Counted from the first letter of the stretch, positions 1-44,257 are shown. The stretch: DNA of 44,257 bases from Elusimicrobiota bacterium (GCA_041662295.1 JBAZSR010000003.1:13470-57726); one strand, 5' to 3'. Made by a program: numbers and translations. The notes: a model not told the origin generated them from the sequence alone.

Positions 1-1654
1 CGTCGATCTTCGGGGTCGCGGACCAGGCCAGGCCGTCGTCCCGCTTAAACTCCAGCGGTTCTCCGACGCGCAGTGAGAGCCCGCGCTCGAGCTCCCGATT
101 GACAGGCATGGGGGAAAGCCGGTCGCCCTGTCGGGGCACTCCGTGGAAGCGGACGACTCCGTCCATGACGAAGTTGACGAGGTGGAAGGGCAGGCTCGCC
201 GCTCCGGGCGCGGGGGTCGCCTGGACCTGGAGATGGAGGTGGGGCTCCAGCGAATACCCGGAATTGCCGCATTCGCCGAGCTTGCGGCCTGCCAGTACGT
301 AGTCTCCGACCGCGACGAGGACGGAGTCCTTGCGCAGGTGGGCGAGGATGGCGCAGACGCCGGAGAGGGAGCGCACGACCACGTAGTTGCCCCAGTTCTT
401 CTGGATCTCGGCCCTGCCGACAGGATTGTCCGGCAGGATCGAACAGACCGCGGCCACGTGGCCGTCGAACGGGGACAGCACGGGGCGGCCGAACGCGTGG
501 TGAGGCTCGAGGCTGCCGCCGTCTCCAGAGAAGGTCTTGCCGTCCTCTCCGAGGACCACGAAGTCGAGGCCGTGCCGCCATTGGCCGGTGTGCGTCAGCG
601 GGCCGTCGAAGCCCTGCTGGACCGCCCAAGTCCCCTCGAAGGGGCAGAACACGCCGACCTCGCTGCCGCCGTGCCGCAGCCGCAGCAGGCGCAGGCGGTC
701 GATGGTCTCCTCGGGCGTGCCGCCGTAGTCCGCGGCCAGGCGTGAGGGCTGGGTGCTGCGCACGCTGCGCAGGGCCAGCAGGACCGTGACGTTGAAGGGC
801 AGGGCCGTGATCGGGATGCGGAAGATCTCCCAGAAGGCCAAGCCCCCGGCCGTGACGAGACCGCCCATCAGGGTGCACGCGGCGGCCAGTCCCGTGGACG
901 AGGCCGACGGCACGAGGAAGACCGCGGCGATGGCGGGGAAGATGAGCGAGTAGTTGAAGAAATGGGGGTCGCTGGTGTTGAGCGGCGTCAGCTGGGTCAG
1001 GCTCTCCGCGAGGCACCCCAGGGAGAAGCCGATGACGGAGAAGGCGGCCATCAGCGGGGAGCGGCACGCGATGGCGGCGAGCAGGATGGCGCCGAAGAGG
1101 GGGTCCGGCATGCACAGGCAGGCGCCGAGCGAGCGCAGGAAATGCGATACGCCGGCCGGCAGGCCAGCGAAGACCGCGGGAGCCAGGTCCGTGAAGTACC
1201 AGGTGGCGTCGGTCAGGTTGGAGAACCGGCGGCCGGCCAGGGCCAGCAGCATGGCGGCCAAGGTGAACGGCACGGAGAGCACGGGCAGGCCCAGCAGGCT
1301 CAAGGCGGACTCGAGGAACAGGGTCAGCAGCAGGGTCAGCCCCGCCGTCAGGCAGATGAGGAGGCCGACCCCCGGCTCGAGCTTGAACAGGTAGCCGGCG
1401 AAGAGGCCGATGAGCAGTGAGTTGTAGAGCACGAACCCGCGGTAGGCCAGTGCCGGCCGGGAGCCCAGCAGCTGGAGCACGACGAAGCCGCTCAGCAGTC
1501 CGAGGAGTCCGGCCGCGCCGACATTCGGGTGGAGGAAGGTCGCGGCGGCCATGACCGCCCCGACCCAGGGGCTGTCGATGAAGAAGATCGCCGAGTAGGC
1601 GCCCGCGAGCGACCGGGCATGGCGGGACCAGGAGCCGTCAGGAGTCGTGTCCAT
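1..1654 (-). CDS. Fusion protein: N-terminal urea-transporter (UT)-like polytopic membrane domain + C-terminal M23 (LytM-type) metallopeptidase domain; C-terminus runs off the window (partial)
   Basis: Absent from the ORF track because no stop lies in the window. Hand translation of the minus strand from ATG 1654 gives MDTTPDGSWSRHARSLAGAYSAIFFIDSPWVGAVMAAATFLHPNVGAAGLLGLLSGFVV...RGFVLYNSLLIGLFAGY..., with UT-like motifs and multiple hydrophobic segments down to ~nt 790. This is followed by ...GPLTHTGQWRHGLDFVV...GNYVVVRS...GECGNSGYSLEPHLHLQVQ (M23 HxxxD and GxSGxSxxPHLH zinc motifs). An in-frame TGA at 1682-1684 makes ATG 1654 the first possible start; it overlaps the upstream gene by 17 nt. 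Listed ORF 45..1115 is the Pro/Arg-rich wrong frame. Confidence 0.8.
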   Translation of the reverse strand, partial: MDTTPDGSWSRHARSLAGAYSAIFFIDSPWVGAVMAAATFLHPNVGAAGLLGLLSGFVVLQLLGSRPALAYRGFVLYNSLLIGLFAGYLFKLEPGVGLLICLTAGLTLLLTLFLESALSLLGLPVLSVPFTLAAMLLALAGRRFSNLTDATWYFTDLAPAVFAGLPAGVSHFLRSLGACLCMPDPLFGAILLAAIACRSPLMAAFSVIGFSLGCLAESLTQLTPLNTSDPHFFNYSLIFPAIAAVFLVPSASSTGLAAACTLMGGLVTAGGLAFWEIFRIPITALPFNVTVLLALRSVRSTQPSRLAADYGGTPEETIDRLRLLRLRHGGSEVGVFCPFEGTWAVQQGFDGPLTHTGQWRHGLDFVVLGEDGKTFSGDGGSLEPHHAFGRPVLSPFDGHVAAVCSILPDNPVGRAEIQKNWGNYVVVRSLSGVCAILAHLRKDSVLVAVGDYVLAGRKLGECGNSGYSLEPHLHLQVQATPAPGAASLPFHLVNFVMDGVVRFHGVPRQGDRLSPMPVNRELERGLSLRVGEPLEFKRDDGLAWSATPKID

Positions 1655-2966
1655 GGCGGGGGAGGTCGGACTCGAGGGCCGTCACGTCCGAGAGGGTCTC
1701 GGCGCGGCGGATGACGAAAGGCTTGCCGGACTCGCGGATCATGACCACCGCGGGCCGGTACTGGATGAACTGCATCCACTGCGCGACGTTGTAGGCTCCG
1801 ACCGGGGAGAGGATCAGGGACTGCCCGCGGGAGAGCCGCGGCAGGAGGATCGCCTCGTCGACCACGTCGATGTTCATGCAGAGGGGCCCGAGCAGGATGG
1901 AGGGCTCCATGACGCCGCCCGTCTCGCGGTCGAGCTCGATCTTGAACTTGTACCAGGTCGCGGTGTAGAGGAGGTTGACCCCGGCGTCGAGGATGTAGGC
2001 CCTGCGGCCGTCCGGCAGCAGCTTGTCTGCGCAGACTGAGGTGATGAGGAAGCCCGCCTCGTCGACCAGGTGGCGCCCGTTCTCCAGGTAGAGCCGCGGG
2101 GGCGACTTGCGCGAGAGGAGCCACTTGAGCTGGCTGCCCATGGCCGCGGCGTAGGCCTCGACGCCAGGCACCGCGATCTCGGGGGGCTGGTAGACTCCCT
2201 TCAAGTGGCTGCGGCTCGGGATCCCGCCGCCCAGGTCGAGGTACTCGATGGGCTTGCCGGTCAGGCTCTCGGCCGTCCGGATGAAGGCGCTGAGCTTGGC
2301 CGCTGCGCGGCCGTAGGCCGAGGGATCCAGGATGAAGGTGCCGAGGTGGCAGTGAACGCCGGCCAGCTTGAGCGCCTTGCTGTTGATGATCCAGCGCACC
2401 GCGGCCGCGGCCTGGCCGCTCTCCAGGTTGAAGCCGAAGCGCGACCAGACGGGGTAGATGCCCGCGTCAAGGTTGACCCGGATGCCGACCTTGACGCGGA
2501 CCTTGAGCGCCTTGCCCGCGGCTTCGAGGTCCTCGAGCTCGTTGAAGTGGTCGACGTTGATGAGGGCCCCGTCGCGCACCGCGCGCTTCAGCGCCGCCAT
2601 GGGCTTGCAGGGGCCGTTGAAGATGATCTGGTCGCCTGGCACGCCGAGGCCGCGCGCCTTGTCGTATTCGAACGGGCTGACGACCTCGGCCAGGGCGCCC
2701 TCCTGGTGGAAGACGCGGCAGACCGCGGAGAGGTAGTTCGTCTTGTAGCTCCAGCCGAAGCGCACGTTGGGATAGACGCCATGGACCGCGGCGTAGGCCT
2801 GGCGGTACTTCTCTCGCATGACGCGCTCGGAGAAGACGAACAGGGGCGAGCCGAAATCCTTGACGAGGTCCTTCACCGCGGCTCCCTCGACGGACTCGCG
2901 GATGAGCGGATAGCTCTGCGCCGATGAGCCGTGCTTGGCGTAGAGGGGGTTGCCGACGCGCACCAT
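1638..2966 (-). CDS. PLP-dependent decarboxylase, Orn/DAP/Arg decarboxylase family (fold-type III)
   Basis: Distal 442 codons of listed ORF 1638..3263. Start moved to ATG 2966 (MVRVGNPLYAKHG...) because the upstream part is Pro/Arg-rich read-through overlapping the next gene. Family motifs: FGWSYKTNY (PLP-lysine region), LDLGGGIPS (Gly-rich loop), ENGRHLV, GPLCMNIDV. Confidence 0.85.
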   Translation of the reverse strand: MVRVGNPLYAKHGSSAQSYPLIRESVEGAAVKDLVKDFGSPLFVFSERVMREKYRQAYAAVHGVYPNVRFGWSYKTNYLSAVCRVFHQEGALAEVVSPFEYDKARGLGVPGDQIIFNGPCKPMAALKRAVRDGALINVDHFNELEDLEAAGKALKVRVKVGIRVNLDAGIYPVWSRFGFNLESGQAAAAVRWIINSKALKLAGVHCHLGTFILDPSAYGRAAAKLSAFIRTAESLTGKPIEYLDLGGGIPSRSHLKGVYQPPEIAVPGVEAYAAAMGSQLKWLLSRKSPPRLYLENGRHLVDEAGFLITSVCADKLLPDGRRAYILDAGVNLLYTATWYKFKIELDRETGGVMEPSILLGPLCMNIDVVDEAILLPRLSRGQSLILSPVGAYNVAQWMQFIQYRPAVVMIRESGKPFVIRRAETLSDVTALESDLPRHGHDS

Positions 2967-2989
2967 GCTGGGCCTGCTGTAGCGTTCGC

Positions 2990-4036
2990 TCACGCGCCCT
3001 CCCGGTTCCCTTTGGACAGGAGATTCTCGAAGGCCGACAGGTCCGTCACGAACTCCGAGGTCTGCCGCACGCAGAACCTGCCGGCCGCGTACTCGTCCTG
3101 GGCCGAGCAGCGCCCCCCCGCGACGAGCTCGAGGAGCTGGCGGGGGAGGTTCACGCCCGCGCCCGTGGCGAAGTGGACCCAGGCCGGGAAGCGAGGGTTG
3201 ATCTCGATGAGGTAGAGCCCGTCCTTGGCGCGGATGCACTCGAGTTCGAAAGGGCCGCGCCACTTGGTGGCGCGGCAGAAGCGCTCACTGAGGCGCTCGA
3301 GTTCGGGGTCGTGCACCGTGACCGCGGTCCAGACCTTGCCTAGGTGGGTCGTGAGCTGTTTCTTGATGACCACGCGGCCGCGGAGCTTCCCCTTGGCGTC
3401 CGAGAGGCCGATGAGGTTGAGCTCCGGCCCGTGCACGGGTTCCTGGAGCAGGAGCGGGTAGCCCCACTCCGCCGCGATCTCCGTGCCCTTCATGGCCGCG
3501 GCGTCGAGGTTGTGCACGAAGTAGGCCTTGTAGTACTTGCCCTTCACGATGGCCGGCAGGGGGAAGTCGGTCCGGAGCCTGCCGATCAGCTCGTCGATGC
3601 CGTGGACCACCGCGGTCCTCGGGTAGCGGCAGCCGGTCTTCTTCGCGAGGGCCGCCAGGCGATCCTTGCTGCGCAGGTCGAACTGCGCTTCCGTGGGGAG
3701 CAGGGTGCGGATGCCGGCCTTGGCGAGCTCAGCCTGGTGGCGGATGAGCAACGGCAGCTCGACGTCGAGGCAGGGGATCAGCACGTTCATCCCGGTCTTG
3801 GACCGGACCTTGTCGAGGCCGCTGGACAACTCGCTCCAGCCGCGCGTCGGGTAGGGCATGAGGAAGCTGTTCTCGAAGAGGTCGGTCAGATAGTTGCCGG
3901 GGTCGTGAACATCGTAGCTCAAGCCGATGAGCCTGATTCCGGGGAACGCGGCGGCCAGGCCCCGCGCCACGGCCACCCCAGGGCCGGGGTTGTCCGTGGC
4001 ATTGATGCCCGAGACTCCGACGCAGAGGTCCTTCAT
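2990..4036 (-). CDS. ATP-grasp fold carboxylate-amine ligase, substrate unknown
   Basis: Listed ORF 2990..4255 trimmed to ATG 4036 (MKDLCVGVSGINATDNPGPG...), which forms an ATGA overlap with the stop of the PqqD-like gene. PAIVKGKYYKAYFVHN...WGYPLLLQEPVHGPELNLIGL...LYLIEINPRFPAWVHFATGAGVNLP is a typical ATP-grasp signature. Confidence 0.8.
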   Translation of the reverse strand: MKDLCVGVSGINATDNPGPGVAVARGLAAAFPGIRLIGLSYDVHDPGNYLTDLFENSFLMPYPTRGWSELSSGLDKVRSKTGMNVLIPCLDVELPLLIRHQAELAKAGIRTLLPTEAQFDLRSKDRLAALAKKTGCRYPRTAVVHGIDELIGRLRTDFPLPAIVKGKYYKAYFVHNLDAAAMKGTEIAAEWGYPLLLQEPVHGPELNLIGLSDAKGKLRGRVVIKKQLTTHLGKVWTAVTVHDPELERLSERFCRATKWRGPFELECIRAKDGLYLIEINPRFPAWVHFATGAGVNLPRQLLELVAGGRCSAQDEYAAGRFCVRQTSEFVTDLSAFENLLSKGNREGA

Positions 4037-4272
4037 GAATTCGAGCGGATGATGTCGATCTCGGCCTTGAAGACCAGCAGGTCCGTCATGGCGCGGTCCT
4101 GGTCGATGCCGAACTTCTTCGCGACCTCGGCCGCGATCTGCTCGTCCGTCAAACCGCGGCGCAGACGCTCGATGATGGCCTTGGCCGCGGGGTTGAGCTG
4201 GAAGCTCTCCCCGGTCTGCGGGTCGAACGCCATGCCTGTCGCACTGAGGTTCCAATGCTTGATGTCGGCCAT
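4033..4272 (-). CDS. PqqD-like small protein (RiPP-recognition-element type peptide-binding domain), 79 aa
   Basis: C-terminal 79 codons of listed ORF 4033..5013: MADIKHWNLSATGMAFDPQTGESFQLNPAAKAIIERLRRGLTDEQIAAEVAKKFGIDQDRAMTDLLVFKAEIDIIRSNS. The pattern (beta strands, then LN-x-aa-x-i-x-x-L, then a three-helix segment with ...D-x-x-x-F...) matches PqqD family proteins. G-rich SD (GAGGGGGGGAGA) lies 6-7 nt upstream of ATG 4272. Confidence 0.75.
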   Translation of the reverse strand: MADIKHWNLSATGMAFDPQTGESFQLNPAAKAIIERLRRGLTDEQIAAEVAKKFGIDQDRAMTDLLVFKAEIDIIRSNS

Positions 4273-4303
4273 GTCCGGTCTCCCCCCCTCTCGGGGCGGC
4301 CCG

Positions 4304-5065
4304 TCAGCGCCGGCCCCTGCCGCCCCCGCCTCCGCGGCTGTTGCGGGAGCCGGCTCCGCGATTGCCCACTCCCTGGCCGGAATTGCCGCCGCCCCGGTGG
4401 TGGCCGCTGTTCCCCGCCTTTTCCCTCTGGGTGGACCTGTTCTCGGCGCGGTCGCGGACATCCTCCCTGCGGTCGGCCCTGTTCTCAGCGCGGTCTCGGA
4501 CATCCTCTTGCCGGTCCTTCCTGTCCTCTTTCCGGTCGCGGACATCTTCCCTGGCGTCGCGCACGTCCTCGCGCTTGTCGCGGAGCCCGCCGTTGTGCCT
4601 GGCGTCACGGACATCCTCCCGCCTGTCGCGGACGTCTTCCCTGCGGTCGACCTTGTTTTCCGCGCGGTCTCGGACATTTTCGCGGCGGTCGGCCCTGTTC
4701 TCGGCGCGGTCGCGGCGGTCCTCTTTGCGGTCGCGGACGTCCTCCCGCTGGTCGCGGCGCTCCTCTTTCCTGTCGCGGACCCGCTCTCCCGTCCCCTGGG
4801 CGTCGTTCGCCGCGCCCGGTTGGTTGTTGCCGCGGTCCTTGTCGTGGCCGTAGGCGTTGCCGCCGGTCGGGACCGCTGGGGTGGCGCCGCTGCCAGGGAG
4901 GCCCGGGTCAGCCGGGACCGTGCCGGAGCCTGTCTGCTTGTCGGACCCCGCGGCCTTGTCGCTGGCGTTGTCCGACTGCGCTTGTAAAGGAAGGGCCGCG
5001 AATGCCGCCCCAAGAGCGACGATCAAGGCCAGGCCCAGCCAGTTCAGCGCGCGATGATTCTTCAT
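4304..5065 (-). CDS. Secreted, extremely charged heptad-repeat protein (253 aa) with Gly/Arg-rich C-terminus
   Basis: Listed ORF 4304..5152 trimmed to ATG 5065, preceded by GGAGGAGA 8 nt upstream. Sec-type signal peptide MKNHRALNWLGLALIVALGAAFAALPLQAQ|S. Residues 93-213 are ~17 consecutive x-E-(D/N)-(V/R)-(R/A)-D-R heptads (REDVRDR, KEDRRDR, AENRADR...). Tail is ...GHHRGGGNSGQGVGNRGAGSRNSRGGGGGRGRR. Confidence 0.8.
   Translation of the reverse strand: MKNHRALNWLGLALIVALGAAFAALPLQAQSDNASDKAAGSDKQTGSGTVPADPGLPGSGATPAVPTGGNAYGHDKDRGNNQPGAANDAQGTGERVRDRKEERRDQREDVRDRKEDRRDRAENRADRRENVRDRAENKVDRREDVRDRREDVRDARHNGGLRDKREDVRDAREDVRDRKEDRKDRQEDVRDRAENRADRREDVRDRAENRSTQREKAGNSGHHRGGGNSGQGVGNRGAGSRNSRGGGGGRGRR
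4427..4789 (-). repeat. ~17 tandem 21-bp (heptad-coding) repeats inside the secreted-protein gene
   Basis: Periodicity is visible in all translated frames of this stretch (e.g. + strand SRTSSLRS... repeats). One unit is irregular (RHNGGLRDK, 9 residues). Confidence 0.85.
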
Positions 5066-5135
5066 ATTCAGTGTCTCCTCCATCGAGATGTCGTTTGTCA
5101 GGGGCCGGAGCAGCCTCAGTCCCCCTCCACGATAT

Positions 5136-5161
5136 AGACGTAAAGGCCGCATTTTGGTTTA
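5136..5161 (-). promoter_or_regulatory. Putative ECF-type promoter of the repeat-protein/PqqD/ATP-grasp/decarboxylase/M23 operon (TAAACC-N15-CGTCTA)
   Basis: Minus strand reads gTAAACCaaaatgcggctttaCGTCTAta, ~70 nt upstream of ATG 5065. It has the same -35/-10-like words and identical spacing as the motif upstream of the divergent ECF sigma gene. AAC-N16-CGT is the generic ECF promoter architecture. Confidence 0.45.
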
Positions 5162-5231
5162 CTTGGAAAATTGCTTAAAACTGCAATCGATTTTATAGCA
5201 TACGAAAATCGTCCCCGCCAGCGGCATCCAC

Positions 5232-5257
5232 TAAACCTCCGGCATGTCTTCGCGTCT
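5232..5257 (+). promoter_or_regulatory. Putative autoregulated ECF-type promoter of the sigma/anti-sigma pair (TAAACC-N15-CGTCTT)
   Basis: cTAAACCtccggcatgtcttcgCGTCTTaa ends 18 nt before the GTG start at 5276, within the only AT-rich stretch of the region. Confidence 0.45.
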
Positions 5258-5275
5258 TAATGACAGGCAGGCAAC

Positions 5276-5842
5276 GTGAGCGACCACGACTTCGACGCTG
5301 AGATCGTTGAGCGCAGCCGCAAAGGCGATGCCGAGGCTTTTGGGACCCTGGTCGCCCATTATCAGCGCCTGCTGACAGGCGTCGCGTTCGGGGTGGTGGG
5401 AGACCCGGCAATGACTGAGGATCTGGTGCAGGAGGCGTTCATCGCGGCATGGAAGGCCCTTCCAAAATATAGGGGGGACGCCAGCTTCAAGAACTGGCTC
5501 TGCCGCATCCTTCTCAACAAGGCTTATTCCGCGCTGCGGTGGGGCCGCTTGCGCAAGTGGGTCAGCCTTGACGGGCCTGCTGAGACGCCCTGGGCCGAGA
5601 CTCTTCCGGACACGGCCCCGGACGCAAGCCCGGAGGGAGTCCTTCTCAAGGAAGAGCGCTCAGCAGCCGTGCGCAAGGCTGTTGAGGTCCTCCCGCTCCA
5701 GCAGAGGACAGCAGTGGTCCTGCGCGCCAACGGTCTGGACGTGGCCGAGGTGGCGGCGGCAATGGGCGTGGCAGAGGGAACGGTCAAGGCGCACCTGCAT
5801 CACGCGCGCGCCAAGCTCTCTCCGCTGGTGGAAGGGACATGA
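5276..5842 (+). CDS. ECF (group 4) sigma-70 family RNA polymerase sigma factor
   Basis: 188 aa, GTG start. Region 2 (DLVQEAFIAAWKAL...F.NWLCRILLN) and region 4 HTH (LPLQQRTAVVLRANGLDVAEVAAAMGVAEGTVKAHLHHARAKL). Confidence 0.9.
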   Translation: MSDHDFDAEIVERSRKGDAEAFGTLVAHYQRLLTGVAFGVVGDPAMTEDLVQEAFIAAWKALPKYRGDASFKNWLCRILLNKAYSALRWGRLRKWVSLDGPAETPWAETLPDTAPDASPEGVLLKEERSAAVRKAVEVLPLQQRTAVVLRANGLDVAEVAAAMGVAEGTVKAHLHHARAKLSPLVEGT

Positions 5843-7350
5843 ACCAGGATAACGACAACGAGTTCTGGTCCAAAACAGGGGACAGCTTAAAGCCCAGGCT
5901 GAGCGAGGCTCAGTGGACGGCTCAGCGGGCCCGCATCATGGGCCGGCTGGCCCAGGGCTCAGGCGCTGGCCGGCTGGCGGCCTGGGTCGCTGCTGCTGCC
6001 CTCGCGTGCCTGGCCGGCCTGGGCATCCTCCTGCCCTGGGGGAAGTCCAAGCCCGCGCCCGAAGGCCAGACCGTGACCCAGGCTCCGGTCCAGATATCCT
6101 CAGCAGCTCCCGCGGCTGCGGCCGGCGCATGGGACAGCCGCATCACCATGACGCAGGGCACGGTGACGTTCTTCGTCCGCGGCAGCACCGAGGGCGTCCC
6201 CGCGGTCGAGGGCATGCCGCTCGAGGAGGGCGACCGGGTGCGGACCGGCGCAGACGGCCGGGCGGAGCTCGCGCTCTCGGCCGAGAGCATCATCGACCTC
6301 GGGCCCGTGTCCGCGATCACCCTCTCCGACCTCAGGCAGGACCAGACCCTCCTCGGTCTCGACGTGGGCACGCTCGTCGCCAAGCTCAGCTGGAAGCTTC
6401 TTCCGGGCAGGCAGCTCTCGGTCGTGACCCCGACCGCGGTCTGCGCGGTGCGCGGCACCGAGTTCGGCGTGGAGGTCCAGGAGGGCGGCGGGACCGCCAT
6501 CGGCGTCTTCGACGAGGGCAGGGTGGCGGTCCGGACCGCGGGGGATTCCGGCGTCGAAGAGACGATGCTCGAGCCCAGGCAGGAGGTCCGAGTGCCTGCC
6601 GGCGCTGTTCCCGAGACCGAAGCGCGGGACGGTCGTCGCTACCTCCGCGTAGGCGAGCTTTCCAGCCTCAAGCCCCAGCAGGAGCGGATGAATGTCGTGC
6701 GCGAGCGGCCGCAGGCCCTGGCCGGCGCGTGGAAGCCGATGGCTCTATCCGAGCGCGAGCAGGCCCGTGGCCGCGTCATGTCTGAGCACCAGGGCCGCAT
6801 GCAGGCCATGCCTCTTGAACAGCGGCGTTCCATGCAGGAGCGCGTGCGCCAGTCTCAGCCCGGCCAGGCCGGGCCTGGAGACCGCGGTCCTTCCCATGAC
6901 TCCGGGCAGAGGCGGCAGGATGGCGGCCGGAGCCAAGACCGCGGCCGGCCCGGGGAGGAAGGGGCGAGGAAGCCCGAGGAGCCTGGAGGGCCGGCTCAGG
7001 AGCGGGACATGCCTCCGGACAGCCGGCCCCGGCAGGCTGAACCAGGGCAGAGGCTCGTCCCTGAGTCAGGCCAGCGGCCCGGGACCGAGCCAGGCCAGGA
7101 TCGCGAACCCGGGGCCCAAGGGGATCGTTCACCCGGCGGCATGCAGGAACGGCAGGGACCTGAGCGCGGTCAGGCTCCAGGGGCCCGCCAGGGGCCAGAG
7201 CGCCAGCAAGGCGCCGGGCAGAGGCAGGGCCCTGAGCGCAGGCAAGGGCCGGACCGCAGGCCCGGCGGCAACATGCGTCCTCCGGGCGGCCAGCACCGGC
7301 CGCAGGGCGGGGGCCAGAGGCGTCCCGCGCCCGGCGGCCGTAGGCATTGA
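5839..7350 (+). CDS. FecR-domain anti-sigma factor: single TM, periplasmic FecR domain, long Gln/Gly/Pro/Arg low-complexity tail
   Basis: ATGA overlap with the sigma gene. TM is AAWVAAAALACLAGLGILL. FecR-like segments: GDRVRTGADGRAELALSAESIIDLGPVSAITL ... VVTPTAVCAVRGTEFGVEV. The last ~170 aa are repetitive (RQGPERxQG...). Confidence 0.8.
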   Translation: MNQDNDNEFWSKTGDSLKPRLSEAQWTAQRARIMGRLAQGSGAGRLAAWVAAAALACLAGLGILLPWGKSKPAPEGQTVTQAPVQISSAAPAAAAGAWDSRITMTQGTVTFFVRGSTEGVPAVEGMPLEEGDRVRTGADGRAELALSAESIIDLGPVSAITLSDLRQDQTLLGLDVGTLVAKLSWKLLPGRQLSVVTPTAVCAVRGTEFGVEVQEGGGTAIGVFDEGRVAVRTAGDSGVEETMLEPRQEVRVPAGAVPETEARDGRRYLRVGELSSLKPQQERMNVVRERPQALAGAWKPMALSEREQARGRVMSEHQGRMQAMPLEQRRSMQERVRQSQPGQAGPGDRGPSHDSGQRRQDGGRSQDRGRPGEEGARKPEEPGGPAQERDMPPDSRPRQAEPGQRLVPESGQRPGTEPGQDREPGAQGDRSPGGMQERQGPERGQAPGARQGPERQQGAGQRQGPERRQGPDRRPGGNMRPPGGQHRPQGGGQRRPAPGGRRH

Positions 7351-7386: not shown

Positions 7387-7728
7387 TCAGGCTTGGCCTG
7401 ATTCGAGCTTCTTGATGCGGCCTTCGTGGTCCGTGACCTGGACTTTCATCTCGGTCAGGGATTGGCCGTGGAGTGTCGTCGCCCTGTCGTAGTTCTGGGA
7501 CTTCCCCGCGAAGGAGTCGATGGCTCCGAGGATGCGGTTGATGTCTTCCTTTGTGGCAAGGCCGGCCAGGGTCTCTTTGACTTCGTAGAGATCGGACTGG
7601 GTCTTGACGATCTCCAGGGCGAGGCGGTGGACGGAGGTGTCTATCTTCTGGTCGAGTTCCGCCCGCAATGCGCGGAGGTCTCCCTTCGTGGCCGGCTGAT
7701 CCGCGTCAGCGTGGAGCATTGAGTCCAT
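7387..7728 (-). CDS. Small predicted coiled-coil protein, unknown function (paralogue A, 113 aa)
   Basis: Complete ORF with GGAGGAAT SD. N-terminal 15 aa and C-terminal ~60 aa are near-identical to ORF 8393..8713; the centre is divergent. Confidence 0.7.
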   Translation of the reverse strand: MDSMLHADADQPATKGDLRALRAELDQKIDTSVHRLALEIVKTQSDLYEVKETLAGLATKEDINRILGAIDSFAGKSQNYDRATTLHGQSLTEMKVQVTDHEGRIKKLESGQA

Positions 7729-7834: not shown

Positions 7835-8384
7835 ATGAACAGAAACGCCGTGGGGGGAGGCGGCCAGGATGCGGCTGTGGTGGGGGGGGTGGAGGACTAC
7901 GCGTTTGTAGCCGACGTGCCGGGCGCTGAGGCCAATGCCAAGGCGTGGTACGACTACCTTGCCGAGACGCGCGGCGTGCCCGCTGCCAGCATCAAGCTCC
8001 TGACAGGCGTTGATGCCACGCGCGACGAGATGCTCGATCGAGCGCTACAGCCCTCTTGTGGCCGTGACTATGGGAGGTCCCGCTGACCCGAGGATGGCGG
8101 TGCTGACAGCGGCCAAGGCCGACCAGTTCGCGGGCTCCCTGCCCGGGACCAAGAGGCCGGCGTTCAGCTACCTGGTGCTGGGAGGTCTGCGCGGCTGGGC
8201 GGCGGAGGGCAAGAAGGCCGCGCTGACAGCAGGCGACCTCTGGGAGCATCCTACGGGCTCCTTCCGGGTCTTACGCGGCGGGTCCTGGTGCCTCGACGTC
8301 GCCAGGCACTTCCGGGCCGCGTTCCGCATCTACAACGACCCGAGCTGCCGGGACGACGGTATCGGCTTCCGGCCCGCCCGCTGA
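7835..8384 (+). pseudogene. Decayed remnant of a caspase-like (C14) / FGE-sulfatase-modifying-factor domain gene
   Basis: Two frames are needed (ORFs 7835..8086 and 8010..8384). N-terminal piece: ...ADVPGAEANAKAWYDYLAETRGVPAASIKLLTGVDATRDEML (pre-catalytic-His part of caspase-type domains). Then ...PAFSYLVLGGLRGWAAEGKKAALTAGDL (post-Cys segment). It ends with RVLRGGSWCLDVARHFRAAFRIYNDPSCRDDGIGFRPAR (last ~40 aa of an FGE domain). The catalytic cores of both domains are missing. Confidence 0.6.
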
Positions 8385-8392
8385 AGGTAGAC

Positions 8393-8713
8393 TCAGGCTT
8401 GGCCTGATTCGAGCTTCTTGATGCGGACTTCGTGATCCGTGACCTGGACTTTCATCTCGGTCAAGGATTGGCCGTGGAGTGTCGCCGCCCTGTCGTAGTT
8501 CTGGGACTTCCCCGCGAAGGAGTCGATGGCTCCGAGGATGCGGTTGACGTCGTTCTTCGTGGCCATGGTATGCCGGATATCTTGGACGTCAGATTGAAGC
8601 TTGATGATCTCCGTGACAAGGCGGTGGACGGACGCATCCACCTTCTTGTCGAGCAGGTGGAGCTCTCCCTTCGTGGCCGGCTGATCCGCGTCAGCGTGGA
8701 GCATCGGGTCCAT
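8393..8713 (-). CDS. Small predicted coiled-coil protein, unknown function (paralogue B, 106 aa)
   Basis: Complete ORF; see paralogue A. Confidence 0.7.
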   Translation of the reverse strand: MDPMLHADADQPATKGELHLLDKKVDASVHRLVTEIIKLQSDVQDIRHTMATKNDVNRILGAIDSFAGKSQNYDRAATLHGQSLTEMKVQVTDHEVRIKKLESGQA

Positions 8714-12572: not shown

Positions 12573-13163
12573 GTGCCAGGTTTGGCCGAGACATCGCGGC
12601 TTCGCTCGAAACCTGGCGCCTGGGCCACAGCGGCCGCGGCGGTGCTGGCGGCGGTCCTTTTCTGGAGCCACCTGCCCCCCGCCTCCGCCGATGACGAGGA
12701 ACCGGTCGTCATCCAAAAATACCTAGCCCACCTCTATCTCAACGACAGCCTCGAGACCGTCAAGAGAATCTACCCTCCGACCCGGGAATGGCCGTCGTAC
12801 AGGGAACCAAAAGGGGGGGTCACTCGTATAAAGGTTCAGGGGGTTTCCGCGAAGAACTTCCCGGGAGAGGTGGATCTCCTGTGGGTCGGGATGAGGGACG
12901 ACCGCGTGGTGGAGATCCAACTCGTCTACGGGGCGGACTACACGGGAGAGACCTCGCCGGACAGCCTGGCCAGGGAGCTGGCGCTGATCTACGGGGAGTC
13001 GAAGATGTCGGAGACGGGAAAGTTCTATTGGAACGACGGGGAGCGGGTCCTGCGCGTCTTCTACGCGCAGGTGCCGGTGCTGCGGGGCAAGAGGAAGGTG
13101 ACGGAGATGCGCACCTCCCTGCAGCTGATGGCCGCGGACCTGGTCCGGCGCAAAGGGGAGTAA
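12573..13163 (+). CDS. Hypothetical secreted protein
   Basis: GTG start immediately after the preceding stop. Signal-like [24 protein letters not shown]. No recognisable family. Confidence 0.55.
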
Positions 13164-13249
13164 GAGAAGGAATATTTGATAAAATGACGGGGAGAGCTCC
13201 GAACGGCGTCCTTCGGAGATCCTTCCCGAGAATCTTCGAAGGAGGAAGC

Positions 13250-14354
<1,105 letters not shown>

Positions 14355-14374
<20 letters not shown>

Positions 14375-23772: not shown

Positions 23773-24326
23773 TGGCGTTCTCGGTCCCCAAGGCGCTCAA
23801 AGCCGGAGCCTTGAGGCTCCGCTGTCTCGAGGCCCAGGATACACCCGCGCTCTTCGAAGCCGTCGCGTGCTCGCGGCCAGAGCTTCGGCGCCGCCTGCGA
23901 TGGGTGGATTCCGTCCAGACCCCGGAGGATTGCGCTGGTTTCATCGCCCGGAGCCGGCCCGCGCCTGAGATGACTGAGTTCGTGGTCGGCGTGTTCGAGG
24001 GGAAAGGACGGCTCGCCGGGGTCGCCGCGCTCCAGAACCCGGCCGAGGACGGGGCGGTGGCCGAGTTCTCGGTCTGGATCCGGGCTGACAAGCGGCGGCG
24101 CGGCAAGGCCTTTGCCGCTGGCAAGGCCTTCATCACCCATTTCTTCAGGAAGGCGGGAGTGCGCCGGCTCTACGTCAGGCTCGAACCCGCCAACCCCGAG
24201 GCCCGGGGCCTTGTGCGCAAGCTCGGCTTCAAGTACGAGGGCCGCCTGAGGCGCGAGAAGCGCTTGAACGGGCGGTGGGTGGACCAAGAATGCTGGGGAT
24301 TGCTGCGTGAAGAGTGGCGGGGGTAG
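23772..24326 (+). CDS. GNAT-family N-acetyltransferase (RimJ/RimL-like)
   Basis: 184 aa. Acetyl-CoA loop RRRGKAFAAGKA; ...LGFKYEGRLRRE.. tail typical of RimJ/L-type GNATs. Start overlaps the previous stop by 1 nt. Confidence 0.75.
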   Translation: MAFSVPKALKAGALRLRCLEAQDTPALFEAVACSRPELRRRLRWVDSVQTPEDCAGFIARSRPAPEMTEFVVGVFEGKGRLAGVAALQNPAEDGAVAEFSVWIRADKRRRGKAFAAGKAFITHFFRKAGVRRLYVRLEPANPEARGLVRKLGFKYEGRLRREKRLNGRWVDQECWGLLREEWRG

Positions 24327-24345
24327 CCTGCCGGGAGGATCGGTG

Positions 24346-27300
24346 ATGCGGACCGTGGTTTTCGCGCTCCTTTGGCCGCTGCTCTGCGCAGCTGCTCCGC
24401 TCGCTGGCGCAGCCTCTCCCAGGGATCAGGTCCTCGGCAGGCTCGCAGAGGCCGAAGCAGTCTCCAAGCTGCCCAGGGCCGACCGGGAGAGGCTCGCCAA
24501 GGAGCGGGGCGCCAGCCTCGCCGAGGTCGACCTCGACCTTCAGCGCAAATCCGTGCGTCTTTGCGAGGAGGCGGCGGCCCTGGCTCGCAAGACAGGCGAC
24601 CGCGGGCTCCTGGGCCGGGCCTTGGAGAAGCTGGGCCTGCGCACCTACTGGGACGCGACCCAGCCGGCCAAGGCTGCGGCTCTGGCCGAAGAGGCGCTGG
24701 ACTCCTATCGCGTGGCCAAGGACACGGAAGGCGCCCAGCGGGTGCTGATGAGCCTTCCGAAGATCCTGATGATCACCAGGGATTTCCGCAAGGCCGTCCG
24801 ATACGGCGAGGAGGCCTACGCCAGCGACGCGGCGGCCGCGAAGGAGGGCGCCAGGACGGCCCTCCACCTCGACCTCGGGAACGCCTATCTCGGCCAGGGC
24901 GACCTGCCCAAGGCCCAGGAGCACTTCGAGCGTCTGCTGGCGGACCTCAGGGAGCGCGGCTGGTGGAAGGGGTCCATTCCGGACATCCTCAAGCAGCTCG
25001 CCGACATCCGTCTTCGGTCGGGGGACCTGCGCGGTGCCGCCGGCTTCCTGGAGCAGGTCCGTTACGACACGGACGGCAAGAATGAGAAGGCCAGGATCCA
25101 GAGCCGCTACAACCAGGGCCTTGTCGACAGCAGGTTGGGGGAGCTCTACCTCGACCTCCGGGATTACCGCAAGGCCCTGGAATACGCGGAAAAGTTCGAC
25201 AAGTACACGAAGCCCTTGAAGCTGGCCCGCGTCTATTCCCGCCTTGGCGAATACGGGAAGGCCGTCGCCTCGGTGACGGAGTTCGACTCCTGGATACGGG
25301 ACCAGTTCAAGCTCTTCGGCGAAGCCAAGGCCAAGGAGATGTTCGACGCCAAGTATCTGGTCGAGAACTCCCTGAGCCTCGGCCAGCTCTTCGCCGAGCT
25401 CGGCGACTACCAGAAGGCCGCCGCCTACCATGAGGAGGCTGTCCGCTTCGCCCGGGGGAGCCAATGGGCCGGAGAGGGCATGACCAAGGCGTACCGCGGC
25501 CTCGGGAGCATCCATTACGAGGCCGGCGCTTTCGACAAGGCGCGCGAGTTCCTCGGGAAGGCGCTCAAGGCCGAGGGACTGCTGGGACTGCCGACGAGGG
25601 AGACCGAGCTGCGCATCGCCGACGCCATGCTCGCCCAGGGCCGGCTTCCTGCCGCTGAAGCGGCCTACAGGAAGTTCGACGATTCCCTCGGCCTGGGCAG
25701 GCTCCTGCTGGAGAAGAGGGACTTCGCCGCGGCACGCGCGGCCTTCGAGCGGGCCCTTCGGTCCGCGGAGGGCACGCGCGAGGCCCGTGCCCTCTTCGCC
25801 GCGAACGTGGGCCTGGGCCACGCTGTAGCGGGCCTCAAGGACTTCCCTGCGGCCGCGGCGAGCTATCGCAAAGCGCTCGAGCTCAGCGAGACCCAGCGCG
25901 AGGGCCTTGGTCCAGCGGAGCGGGCGCTCTTCTTCTCCGCCAAGGTCTCGGGATTCGGCCGGACCGAGCCATACGAGGGCCTGGCGCGCTGTCTCGCGGC
26001 GCAGGGAGACGCAGCCGGGGCCTTCTACTGGTCGGAGAGCCTCAAGGGGAGACTGCTGGCCGAGGCCATCGCCCAGGCAGGGAAGGGCTCCGGCTTCTCC
26101 CTTCCCGCCGAGCTGGCGGCGCAGCAGGAGTCCCTGGAGTCGAGGATCCGCGGCCTGCGCACCGAGATGGAGGCGCTTTTCCGCGGCGGCCAGATGGAGC
26201 TCCATGGCCTGCGCGAGTCCGAGCTCAGGGAGGCGAAGGGGGAACTTGATCGGTTCGTCTCCGGCCTGCGGAAGACCCACCCCGAGTACGCCGCCATCCG
26301 CTACCCCGCGCCGCTGCGGCCCGGGGAGGTCAAGCTCTCGAACCGCGAGGTCCTGCTCGCCTTTGAGATGACGGACGACAAGTCCTTCCTGTTCGTCCTG
26401 GAGGGCGCCAGCATGACCTTGCGGGCGCGGGAGCTCCCCCTGCCGGGCCGGGAGGTCGAGCGCCTGGTGCTCCGCTACCGGGACTCCTTCGAGGGTGTGG
26501 CTTCAGCGGCAGACCTCCTGCGGTTCAAGGCCAAGGAAGGGCAGCGGCTCCATGAGATCCTCTTTGGAGACGTCCTTAAGAGCCTTCCCCGGGACGCCTC
26601 GGTCATCATCGTCCCGGACGAGACGCTCGGCCTGCTCCCCTTCGAGTCGCTCCCCGTCACCCTGCCGGAGGTGGAGAAGGCGGGCGACGGCGAGCATGGA
26701 CCCTTCCCGATCGGGATCAGCTACGTCGGCGACCTCTTCCCGGTGAGCTACGCCCAATCGGCCGCGTCGTTGACCTTCCTGCGCTCTTTGGCCAAGGCCG
26801 TTCCGGCCGGCTCCGGGGCTCTGGCCGTGGTCGATCCGGTGTTCTCTCTTGCGGATGCCAGGGCCGCGTCCGCGCCGAAGGCCGAAAATGAGCCGATGCG
26901 CTTGATGGGAGTCATACGCGGTTGGGAGCGCATGGGCGCGGCCGGCACGCGTCAACGGGGTGCTGCTCGTCCTGCGGGGTCAGCGCCGGAACCGGCAGGG
27001 GAGGAAGTCTTCCCGCGTCTTGCCAAGACAGCGGAGATCGGCGCGGAGTTCCGCAGGCTCTTCGGCGGCGCAGCCACCGTGCTCGAGGGTGCTGAGGCGG
27101 CCGAGGACCGCGTCGCGTCCTTCCCGTTCTCGGACCAGAGGTACGTCGTCTTCGGCACGCACGGCATCCTCGACAACGACATCCCCTACATCAGGGAACC
27201 TGCCCTCGTGCTCGCCCAGGCCGGGAACCCGGCCGGCAAGGACGGGTTCCTGACCATGTCCGAGGTGATGGGGCTCAAGATCCCCGCGGAGGTCGTGGCC

Positions 27301-27576
27301 CTGACCGCCTGCCGCACGGGCGTGGGGCGCAGGCTCAGCGGCGAGGGCGTGCTCGGCATGGGGCGGGCCTTCCAGCATGCGGGCGCGGCCAATGTGCTGA
27401 TGAGCCTGTGGTCCGTGGAGGAGGGCGCCACCGTGGCCCTGACAGGCGCCTTCTTCAGGCACGTGAAAGACGGGAAGCCCTCCGGCGAGGCCCTGCGCCT
27501 TGCTCGCGCCGACATCCGGCGCCAGGGCTACGAGCATCCGTTCTATTGGTCGGCCTTCGTTCTGGTGAGCAGGTGA
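24346..27576 (+). CDS. Secreted TPR-repeat / CHAT-domain (caspase-fold) protein
   Basis: ATG 24346 after GGAGGA. Signal peptide MRTVVFALLWPLLCAAAPLAGAAS. Multiple TPR-like repeats. C-terminal CHAT with FGTHG (His) and LTACRTG (Cys) dyad and the terminal HPFYWSAFVL motif. Confidence 0.85.
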   Translation: MRTVVFALLWPLLCAAAPLAGAASPRDQVLGRLAEAEAVSKLPRADRERLAKERGASLAEVDLDLQRKSVRLCEEAAALARKTGDRGLLGRALEKLGLRTYWDATQPAKAAALAEEALDSYRVAKDTEGAQRVLMSLPKILMITRDFRKAVRYGEEAYASDAAAAKEGARTALHLDLGNAYLGQGDLPKAQEHFERLLADLRERGWWKGSIPDILKQLADIRLRSGDLRGAAGFLEQVRYDTDGKNEKARIQSRYNQGLVDSRLGELYLDLRDYRKALEYAEKFDKYTKPLKLARVYSRLGEYGKAVASVTEFDSWIRDQFKLFGEAKAKEMFDAKYLVENSLSLGQLFAELGDYQKAAAYHEEAVRFARGSQWAGEGMTKAYRGLGSIHYEAGAFDKAREFLGKALKAEGLLGLPTRETELRIADAMLAQGRLPAAEAAYRKFDDSLGLGRLLLEKRDFAAARAAFERALRSAEGTREARALFAANVGLGHAVAGLKDFPAAAASYRKALELSETQREGLGPAERALFFSAKVSGFGRTEPYEGLARCLAAQGDAAGAFYWSESLKGRLLAEAIAQAGKGSGFSLPAELAAQQESLESRIRGLRTEMEALFRGGQMELHGLRESELREAKGELDRFVSGLRKTHPEYAAIRYPAPLRPGEVKLSNREVLLAFEMTDDKSFLFVLEGASMTLRARELPLPGREVERLVLRYRDSFEGVASAADLLRFKAKEGQRLHEILFGDVLKSLPRDASVIIVPDETLGLLPFESLPVTLPEVEKAGDGEHGPFPIGISYVGDLFPVSYAQSAASLTFLRSLAKAVPAGSGALAVVDPVFSLADARAASAPKAENEPMRLMGVIRGWERMGAAGTRQRGAARPAGSAPEPAGEEVFPRLAKTAEIGAEFRRLFGGAATVLEGAEAAEDRVASFPFSDQRYVVFGTHGILDNDIPYIREPALVLAQAGNPAGKDGFLTMSEVMGLKIPAEVVALTACRTGVGRRLSGEGVLGMGRAFQHAGAANVLMSLWSVEEGATVALTGAFFRHVKDGKPSGEALRLARADIRRQGYEHPFYWSAFVLVSR

Positions 27577-39748: not shown

Positions 39749-41277
<1,529 letters not shown>

Positions 41278-41442
41278 AACACTTCCTTAGTCTCACGACT
41301 AGGGGAGCCTGTCGACCCCGCTTAGCGGGATGCCTGTTGGCACGCAAATGCTACGGAAGAGTCAAGGCTCTTCCAATCATCGTCCGCTCCTCATTATATG
41401 AGGAAGGTCCCTTTTCCGCCCTGCAGTCCTGGGCGAGACCTA

Positions 41443-41514
41443 GGGCTCGTAGCTCAGGGGTAGAGCACACGCTTGATAAGCGTGGGGTCGGAGGTTCGAG
41501 ACCTCCCGGGCCCA
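41443..41514 (+). tRNA. tRNA-Ile (anticodon GAT)
   Basis: Cloverleaf folds by hand: acceptor GGGCTCG/CGGGCCC, anticodon loop CTTGATAAG, T-arm GGAGGTTCGAGACCTCC. CCA not encoded. Confidence 0.93.
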
Positions 41515-41553
41515 TGTTTTTCAGCGGTTCCGGAGGCTGGGCAGCCGATTTCA

Positions 41554-41626
41554 GGGCTCATAGCTCAGCTGGGAGAGCGCCTGCTTTGCAAGCAGGAGGT
41601 CGCCGGTTCGAATCCGGCTGGGTCCA
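41554..41626 (+). tRNA. tRNA-Ala (anticodon TGC)
   Basis: Acceptor stem with G3:U70 identity pair, anticodon loop CTTTGCAAG, T-arm GCCGGTTCGAATCCGGC. CCA not encoded. Confidence 0.93.
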
Positions 41627-41647
41627 CGGAGCGGCACGACAGATTTT

Positions 41648-41660
41648 CGTTCATTGACAA
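41648..41660 (+). promoter_or_regulatory. Second boxA-like element in the tRNA-23S spacer
   Basis: CGTTCATTGACAA; same core as the leader copy. Confidence 0.45.
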
Positions 41661-41795
41661 TCGGCGTTCCAACACCTCGATGCACCGTATCCTGTAAAGA
41701 CCCCGAAAGGGGGCGGGGAGCGGCGAGCGGAGGGAAGGAGAACATAGAAGCGTCTCACTGCCGTATTCTGCATTGCAGAGTGCGATGGAAGAATA

Positions 41796-44257
<2,462 letters not shown>

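Follow-up and report, generated by a model that had tools for sequence, protein, structure and literature searches.

A gene cassette pairing a PqqD-type domain, an ATP-grasp ligase and a decarboxylase with a urea-channel fold: a possible ligate-then-decarboxylate module of the bacterial envelope

What pathway would bring together a PqqD-type RiPP recognition element (RRE; RiPP, ribosomally synthesised and post-translationally modified peptide), an ATP-grasp ligase, a pyridoxal 5'-phosphate (PLP)-dependent decarboxylase and a urea-channel fold carrying a peptidase? The question arises at the left end of a 44,257-nucleotide stretch of DNA from an Elusimicrobiota bacterium (GCA_041662295.1 JBAZSR010000003.1:13470-57726), hereafter the window, where five minus-strand genes are packed into one operon. 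Four of the five belong to a cassette that keeps its gene order across more than 12 phyla, and for this cassette we propose, at a probability of roughly 0.4, an RRE-guided "ligate, then decarboxylate" envelope module, in which an amidase tethered to the channel would cut the product for delivery to the outside.

The operon, its conserved core and its local additions

The operon opens with a gene for a 253-residue repeat protein (4304-5065, minus strand), which is followed on the same strand by a stand-alone PqqD-type RRE of 79 residues (4033-4272; PF05402, 34.8 bits against a cut-off of 23.4, 2.1e-8), a 348-residue ATP-grasp carboxylate-amine ligase of the carbamoyl-phosphate synthase (CPS)-like or PRK12767-like kind (2990-4036; Pfam ATPgrasp_Ter, 35.9 bits, 7.3e-9) and a 442-residue PLP decarboxylase of the alanine-racemase fold that resembles FigC/FslC (1638-2966; Orn_Arg_deC_N, 100.5 bits, 1.3e-28; Orn_DAP_Arg_deC, 38.2 bits). 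The last gene encodes a urea transporter (UT) domain fused to an M23 peptidase (<1-1654, or 2..1654 within the window, minus strand; 551 residues seen; UT PF03253, 130.1 bits, 1.2e-37; Peptidase_M23, 45.5 bits, 8.9e-12). Its 3' end is lost at the window edge, and with it about 140 residues of a C-terminal beta domain present in full-length relatives of 675-790 residues. From the repeat gene to UT/M23 the junctions consist of a 31-nucleotide gap, an ATGA overlap between the PqqD stop and the ATP-grasp start, a 23-nucleotide gap and a 17-nucleotide overlap, and the minus strand within the operon holds neither a terminator-like nor a sigma-70-like site. The tight five-gene unit described in an initial annotation of this DNA therefore stands, as do all of its domain assignments (PqqD, ATP-grasp, Orn/DAP-type decarboxylase, UT, M23, sigma70 r2/r4 and FecR): every Pfam domain call in the operon and in the adjoining sigma and FecR genes exceeds Pfam's own cut-off, that of the 79-residue open reading frame (ORF) included. 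The nearest relatives of every protein come from metagenome-assembled genomes (MAGs) of Elusimicrobia.

The spread of the operon was followed by a profile scan with the ATP-grasp protein, taking one genome per species, which returned at least 570 related stretches; the counts given below refer to the best 80 loci at species level, and those for individual genes take in only the loci with enough sequence on the relevant side. In 76 of 76 loci the PqqD-like gene runs up to the ATP-grasp start, the decarboxylase gene follows ATP-grasp in 72 of 72, and UT/M23 comes after the decarboxylase in 60 of 63. Three loci (L063, L066 and L083) have PqqD, ATP-grasp and decarboxylase genes and downstream room, yet UT/M23 is not detectable there; in L063 and L066, genes for an outer-membrane barrel and a tetratricopeptide repeat (TPR) protein stand upstream instead. 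More than 1869 ATP-grasp homologues are known in all, with 43-87% identity across phyla. The 80 loci represent more than 12 phyla, including Elusimicrobiota, Bdellovibrionota, Pelagibacterales (SAR11 relatives), Campylobacterota, Aquificota and Planctomycetota, with further carriers in Verrucomicrobiota, Myxococcota, Ignavibacteriota, Cyanobacteria, Thermodesulfobacteriota, Leptospirales and several other groups, and metagenome contigs present the identical cassette order. Culturable organisms are among the carriers: Melioribacter roseus, Thermodesulfatator autotrophicus, Desulfurobacterium thermolithotrophum, Thermovibrio ammonificans, a Sulfurimonas and a Bdellovibrio. The association of PqqD, ATP-grasp, decarboxylase and UT/M23 is thus kept, order included, far beyond close relatives, and it appears from these loci to be largely confined to diderm phyla.

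Two further proteins accompany these four. A barrel family is found in 44 loci (about 270-300 residues in its shortest forms, with a signal peptide and an aromatic C-terminal residue) and a TPR protein in 48 (200 residues, with a signal peptide). The signal peptide and terminal aromatic residue of the former are features of outer-membrane barrels, although neither Pfam nor NCBIfam has a family for it, and the matches of the TPR protein to the PgaA and BcsC models are weak. Both are assigned to the system because they are fused together in several lineages, including the Elusimicrobia loci L001 and L008, and because their genes lie inside the cassette of L053, between ATP-grasp and decarboxylase. 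The window's own barrel and TPR genes would lie beyond coordinate 1, at the left edge, as judged from L001, which is 87% identical, and from L008. The core cassette is, as read from these linkages, one of six genes, encoding the PqqD-type RRE, the ATP-grasp ligase, the decarboxylase, UT/M23, the outer-membrane barrel and the periplasmic TPR protein; the five-gene set of the window did not hold up as the unit, and only the last four of its genes belong to the conserved core.

The view that this gene combination is not a described system was confirmed, in that NCBIfam release 20 contains no model for any of the six parts and a literature search on combinations of PqqD, ATP-grasp, decarboxylase, UT, M23 and SIR2 returned nothing that describes it. 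The one earlier mention to be found comes from a survey of 2026 (PMC12998343), in which M23 figures among the C-terminal partners of bacterial UT domains; UT-M23 appears there as a domain architecture only, with no operon, partners or function.

The repeat protein that heads the operon has a signal-peptide-like N-terminus, about nine EDVRDRx heptads with a DNA period of 21 nucleotides, a Gly/Arg-rich tail and no Pfam family; it is a polyampholyte, its 123-residue core holding 46 Lys and Arg residues against 43 Asp and Glu. A homologue (61% identity) occurs in L008 only, the protein being absent from 78 of the 79 other species loci, among them L001, whose enzymes are 87% identical to those of the window, and L089, at 81%. 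Divergent from the operon are the genes of an extracytoplasmic function (ECF) sigma factor (5276-5842, plus strand; Sigma70_r2 9e-19, Sigma70_r4_2 1.4e-14; TIGR02937, 92.6 bits against a cut-off of 42.9) and of a FecR-domain anti-sigma factor with a Pro/Gly/Gln/Arg-rich tail (5839-7350, plus strand; FecR 1.5e-10), whose start overlaps the sigma stop. This pair stands beside the cassette only in L001, L007 and L008, the closest Elusimicrobia relatives, and is absent from L089 and from all other phyla. Indeed, L089, an Elusimicrobia locus with an 81% identical ATP-grasp protein, has neither ECF/FecR genes nor the repeat protein, and a different, zinc-ribbon membrane protein is encoded upstream. 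The ECF/FecR pair and the repeat protein are lineage-level additions that lie outside the conserved machinery, and the earlier expectation that they travel with the cassette was not sustained.

The motif TAAACC-N15-CGTCT, which is of an ECF-type promoter-like form, was located by motif scan at 5136-5161 (minus strand, towards the cassette) and at 5232-5257 (plus strand, towards the sigma gene). These are its only two copies in the 44 kb, where none would be expected (100 shuffles), and they are placed in opposite directions within a divergent region of 210 nucleotides, in agreement with the initial description of a divergent sigma/FecR pair with a shared motif. A related element, GTAAACCAAAAT...AGTCTAT, is situated directly upstream of PqqD in L001, which has no repeat gene there, and precedes the repeat gene both in L008 and in the window; by this comparison, the repeat gene is an insertion between promoter and cassette. 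In L001 and L008 the sigma gene, too, is preceded by counterparts of the motif. The copy at 5232-5257 likely serves autoregulation of the sigma gene, and it is plausible that the ECF sigma factor drives the cassette from the shared motif in the small clade made up of the window and the relatives that have the pair. A riboswitch search over 8 loci found none.

Enzymes, channel protein and sister cassettes

The PqqD-like protein displays the usual RRE sequence pattern, and its closest NCBIfam models are those of lasso-peptide and other PqqD chaperones. Its C-termini are not conserved and present no conserved attachment residue; a LysW-like carrier role was dismissed on account of these C-termini. 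The AlphaFold2 (AF2) model of the ATP-grasp protein, with a predicted local distance difference test (pLDDT) score of 90.5, has generic fold neighbours, namely 2PN1 (an uncharacterised CPS-like protein), biotin carboxylases, glycinamide ribonucleotide synthetase, L-amino-acid ligases and PylC. Its matches in NCBIfam are sub-threshold only, and the graspetide maturase model is absent among its Pfam and NCBIfam matches, which consist of CPS-like PRK12767, ATPgrasp_Ter and PylC alone.

The decarboxylase finds its best match in the Protein Data Bank in N-citrylornithine decarboxylase (FigC/FslC; 7KH2; 2.1e-56), compared to 9e-36 for the best diaminopimelate (DAP) decarboxylase, and the structures of BtrK are matched at about 1e-18 only. 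It scores below the cut-offs of both the lysA equivalog TIGR01048 (191.1 against 297.9) and the FslC model NF041039 (215.9 against 500). The catalytic loop GP(L/M)CMNID is present in 72 of 74 orthologues, reading GPLCMNID in the window copy, and its Cys-Met is common to FigC, the Met standing for the acidic residue of DAP decarboxylase (DAPDC) and ornithine decarboxylase. At the position of Arg343 of the M. jannaschii DAPDC 72 of the 74 orthologues carry Tyr/Phe-Thr, the window protein Tyr-Thr, and His357 of FigC is replaced by Ile in the window enzyme. In DAPDC this Arg binds the distal carboxylate and the catalytic Cys is followed by an acidic residue, as Cys-Glu, and the clade to which the decarboxylase belongs occurs mostly in specialised-metabolite routes (PMC7857480). 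By these scores and residue patterns the enzyme is neither LysA nor FslC and is best placed in the group that decarboxylates amino acids whose side chain is already conjugated. The database labels "diaminopimelate decarboxylase" and "carbamoyl-phosphate synthase large subunit", at least, are wrong for the cassette genes.

The N-terminal 25 residues of the decarboxylase orthologues, the window protein included, hold a conserved (Y)(E/S)KPxIxK(L/V)…NK(F/H)G, preceding the point at which the fold usually begins. This YEKPxIxKL segment may be structural, or it may be a docking peptide for the RRE; the latter is left as speculation because in this decarboxylase fold the N-terminus as a rule contributes a strand to the C-terminal domain.

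The membrane protein is represented by a full-length relative, P0122 (687 residues, 81% identical), the model of which (pLDDT 90.9) consists of a UT domain, a LytM-type M23 domain and a further beta domain. The UT part shares a 10-helix fold with dvUT, the urea channel of D. vulgaris (Foldseek E 4e-13; TM-score 0.84 on the target), and is also superposable on mammalian urea channels. The M23 part matches the fold of LytM domains, and the C-terminal beta domain has no assignable fold match among the 50 matches listed. Both LPxxxLPF pore motifs are kept, and the zinc-binding or catalytic residues His348, Asp357, His432, His465 and His467 are invariant in 30 M23 homologues, with THTG...LDF, AHL and PHLHLQ in the window protein. 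Although databases name this protein "urea transporter", it reaches 33.7 against a cut-off of 274.6 for the urea-transporter equivalog TIGR03441, and no urease, amidase or allophanate genes are conserved among the neighbourhoods read.

Hydropathy alone did not settle the topology of UT/M23, and loop charges were instead counted on the AF2 helices. Lys and Arg abound in the N-terminus and in the linker that follows the UT domain, whereas the loop joining the two halves is acidic, as is one loop further on; the protein has no signal peptide, and no transmembrane helix follows the UT domain in its model, whether before M23 or beyond it. Both termini of mammalian UTs are intracellular, and SIR2, which takes the place of M23 in the sister cassettes, requires NAD+. 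On the strength of the Lys/Arg-rich segments and acidic outer loops, the missing helix, the SIR2 swap and the mammalian topology, a cytoplasmic position (N-in/C-in) is predicted for M23.

These sister cassettes came from a HMMER search of 1.84 billion representative proteins, in which 285 matches were obtained at E <= 1e-30, many of them 710-residue proteins with two tandem ATP-grasp copies. The sister gene order is TPR protein, PqqD, double ATP-grasp, decarboxylase and UT fused to SIR2, with no M23 (L090:8366-15217, L094:2814-9716 and L095:784-9635), and the sources are a soil metagenome contig, a Nitrospinota MAG and a contig on which the UT-SIR2 protein carries the name Betaproteobacteria. 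The cassette of L095 is followed by genes for an NAD synthase and a GNAT acetyltransferase. UT-SIR2 fusions make up more than 60 clusters (90% identity grouping) among the matches at E <= 1e-10. A third form has an 871-residue ATP-grasp-decarboxylase fusion after PqqD (L092:8681-13583, and also L093), and the existence of this fusion suggests that the two enzymes act in one pathway; in L092 it is followed by a 637-residue protein with no family and no similarity to UT/M23. Upstream in L092 are encoded a giant TPR protein, a TonB_C-like protein and a HEAT-repeat protein.

Taken together, the variants suggest that the UT domain is central to the system and that the domain hung on it is an amide-cleaving enzyme, which would act in the cytoplasm because SIR2 needs NAD+. 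M23 DD-endopeptidases and sirtuins both take acyl groups off side-chain amines, and by analogy the interchange of the two would fit the N-omega-acylated diamino-acid intermediate that is expected for a FigC-like decarboxylase.

Proposed function and its rivals

From the observed gene linkage, fusions and residue patterns we infer the following chemical steps for the cassette. The RRE, co-made with the ligase, would hold a peptide-like substrate, and the ATP-grasp enzyme would join a carboxylate to an amino-acid side chain such that the alpha-amino-acid end is left free. The decarboxylase would then strip the alpha-carboxylate, giving an amide-linked primary amine, in a two-step logic shared with FslA/FslC and BtrJ/BtrK. 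M23 (or SIR2), situated at the cytoplasmic mouth of the channel, would cut an amide bond, by which the product is released or trimmed, and passage over the envelope would finally be by way of the UT pore, the TPR protein and the barrel.

A number of points weigh against this tentative proposal. Nothing in the sequence data points to a binding partner of the RRE, the modelled ATP-grasp fold says nothing on the substrate of the ligase, and the substrate of the decarboxylase, whose FslC score is under the cut-off, probably differs from N-citrylornithine. The topology of M23 is a prediction, the direction of transport is likewise presumed, and, by analogy with known UT members, in which the pore is narrow, only a small or thread-like product could pass. 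The chief weakness is the lack of a substrate gene: all-against-all clustering of 3932 flanking ORFs of at least 35 residues over the 80 loci brought to light no small ORF that is conserved within the cassette or next to it, a scope outside of which shorter or unlinked precursors would lie. The clustering yielded the TPR, barrel and PqqD families only, the small clusters being antisense shadows of conserved genes, and none of the insertions inside the cassette (a duplicated fragment in L021, the barrel and TPR genes of L053 and a GIY-YIG element in L041) holds a precursor. That the enzymes are so highly conserved suggests a substrate that does not vary, which could be a metabolite, part of a partner protein or a conserved peptide encoded at an unlinked site.

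Two loci bear separate remarks. The insertion in L021 (L021:4709-5857, from one Pseudomonadota MAG) consists of a truncated ATP-grasp fragment and a second PqqD between PqqD and ATP-grasp, and is a local duplication or an assembly artefact. A 47-residue ORF in the sister locus L090 was considered as a precursor and found unconvincing.

The lack of a precursor ORF over the 80 loci and the invariant substrate suggested by enzymes 43-87% identical across phyla would suit a pathway that dispenses with a peptide altogether and leads to a siderophore-like compound, an osmolyte or a polyamine conjugate. The ligase would here join two metabolites, the decarboxylase would finish the product, and UT and barrel would export or re-import it, the PqqD-like protein being a structural partner of the ligase only and M23 having a regulatory role or trimming a by-product. 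A siderophore enzyme is indeed the closest relative of known structure for the decarboxylase, in a clade devoted mostly to specialised metabolites (PMC7857480), and a UT pore suits small molecules. Such a pathway is nevertheless rather unlikely, since the PqqD gene is coupled to the ligase in all 76 loci and known PqqD-family proteins are peptide chaperones, since the invariant M23 active site and the SIR2 swap point to a peptide- or protein-linked amide, and since neither a synthetase of the NIS (nonribosomal peptide synthetase-independent siderophore) type nor a TonB receptor is conserved in the neighbourhoods read. Uptake of urea or a small amide through barrel and UT, with assimilation by the cytoplasmic enzymes, would account for the UT fold with its intact pore motifs, for a dedicated outer-membrane barrel and for the name under which the protein is filed; it has very little to recommend it in view of the equivalog score and the want of conserved urease, amidase or allophanate genes nearby, and urea use would give the ATP-grasp enzyme, decarboxylase and RRE nothing to do.

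Modification of the peptidoglycan stem peptide was one of two readings offered by the initial annotation. In its full form, the ligase would attach a residue to the stem peptide or meso-DAP, the decarboxylase would act on the free DAP centre, and M23 would cut cross-links, all serving modification or recycling under envelope stress. M23 is a family of peptidoglycan endopeptidases and its catalytic residues are intact here, the decarboxylase falls in a DAPDC-related clade, an ECF/FecR pair adjoins the cassette in the lineage of the window, and the carriers are mostly diderm, with outer-membrane and periplasmic partners. The reading is weakened, however, by the replacement of the DAPDC specificity residues (lysA 191 against 297.9) and by an M23 domain that has no signal peptide, is predicted to be cytoplasmic and is interchangeable with an NAD-dependent SIR2, and the ECF pair is not conserved with the cassette; we regard it as improbable. 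The other reading, a RiPP cluster with the secreted Asp/Arg/Glu repeat protein as its precursor, recruited by PqqD and then ligated and decarboxylated before export, drew on the place of this gene at the head of the operon in the window and in L008, on the presence of an RRE and on a plentiful supply of Asp and Glu carboxylates that an ATP-grasp enzyme could activate. Yet the enzymes stay conserved in the 78 of 79 other loci from which the protein is absent, its one homologue being that of L008, and a Sec-type signal peptide would remove it from the compartment of the enzymes, leaving this an extremely doubtful candidate.

A bolder proposal, for which we see only a slim chance, is that the cassette makes and secretes a side-chain-free polyamide, such as poly-4-aminobutyrate or poly-beta-alanine, with chain growth on an RRE-bound primer. 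The ATP-grasp enzyme would add the gamma-carboxyl of Glu (or the beta-carboxyl of Asp) to a terminal amine, decarboxylation would regenerate the amine, and the cycle would repeat. A chain of planar amides would thread a UT-type pore, M23, a family favouring side-chain-free residues such as glycine, would sever it from the primer, and TPR protein and barrel would take it over the outer membrane in the manner of the PgaA/BcsC-type pairs for polysaccharides. From the sister cassettes, which have SIR2 and a doubled ATP-grasp domain, a related polymer would be expected.

Surrounding genes and known systems

The remaining part of the window is ordinary chromosome, with genes for ClpC, RecA and an OmpA-like protein and an rRNA operon. 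Beyond the FecR gene, two paralogous small proteins of 113 and 106 residues without a Pfam family are encoded at 7387-7728 and 8393-8713 (both minus strand), with near-identical C-terminal halves (…NRILGAIDSFAGKSQNYDRA.TLHGQSLTEMKVQVTDHE.RIKKLESGQA). Between them, at 7835-8384, are short broken-looking ORFs, one of which ends in GSW…GFRP, like the C-terminus of a formylglycine-generating-enzyme domain. The RecA gene (12788-14374, plus strand) has a longest ORF of 528 residues in which the RecA domain begins at residue 166, and thus has either a long N-terminal extension or an internal true start. The gene at 24307-27576 (plus strand) encodes a protein of 1089 residues that has TPR repeats and, at its C-terminus, a CHAT (caspase-like) domain. 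The rRNA operon (39749-44257, plus strand) comprises the 16S gene, spacer tRNAs at 41443-41514 and 41554-41626, and a 23S gene cut by the end of the window; GC content drops here from about 0.68 to about 0.55.

Among known systems, the rhizoferrin route of Francisella (FslA/FigA with FslC/FigC; 7KH2; PMC7857480) resembles the cassette in its ligation onto a side-chain amine followed by alpha-decarboxylation by a PLP enzyme of the alanine-racemase fold, and the cassette decarboxylase is nearest to FigC and has the Cys-Met loop in common with it. The cassette differs in its use of an ATP-grasp ligase in place of an NIS synthetase, in the Ile found for His357 of FigC, and in its possession of RRE, UT/M23, barrel and TPR protein without a siderophore receptor. 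No IucA/IucC-type gene is present in any neighbourhood read. In butirosin biosynthesis, BtrI, BtrJ and BtrK provide an ATP-grasp enzyme and an alanine-racemase-fold decarboxylase that act in turn on a substrate tethered to an acyl carrier protein. The cassette has such a pair as well, in one variant even fused, but its small partner is a PqqD-type RRE rather than an acyl carrier protein, and its decarboxylase resembles BtrK much less than FigC.

RRE-dependent RiPP or scaffold-peptide pathways, such as lasso B1/B2/C and the fosfazinomycin route, a recent example of small molecules built on scaffold peptides (PMC13622209), likewise combine a stand-alone RRE with an ATP-dependent amide former, a peptidase and export. 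The cassette, in contrast, has no precursor gene in or beside the 80 loci, its enzymes are unusually conserved, its M23 domain is mounted on a urea-channel fold, and its outer-membrane and TPR partners are not RiPP features. The UT urea channels (dvUT, UT-A/UT-B) share with the cassette protein the 10-helix fold, at the TM-score given above, and both pore motifs, whereas the latter lacks linked urea-metabolism genes and scores far under the equivalog cut-off. Finally, the exopolymer export pairs PgaA, BcsC, PelB and AlgK/AlgE also have a periplasmic TPR protein and a barrel, here of about 270 residues, as separate or fused proteins; the enzymes of the cassette form amides and not glycans, its barrel is without a known family, and no inner-membrane glycosyltransferase synthase is part of the conserved gene set in the neighbourhoods read.

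By these comparisons the cassette does not belong with RiPP clusters, graspetide systems, LysA, FslC, urea transporter operons, exopolysaccharide secretion or, given the predicted location of M23, peptidoglycan M23 hydrolases. The system appears new in kind, although it could yet prove an atypical case of a scaffold-peptide or specialised-metabolite pathway. It unites an RRE, a ligate-then-decarboxylate pair, a urea-channel fold joined to a peptidase or a sirtuin, an outer-membrane barrel and a TPR protein, parts that are not known to work together elsewhere. Its product, once known, would define a new envelope pathway of diderm bacteria, provide the first function for UT-M23 and UT-SIR2 fusions, and show what role an RRE plays where no precursor gene adjoins it.

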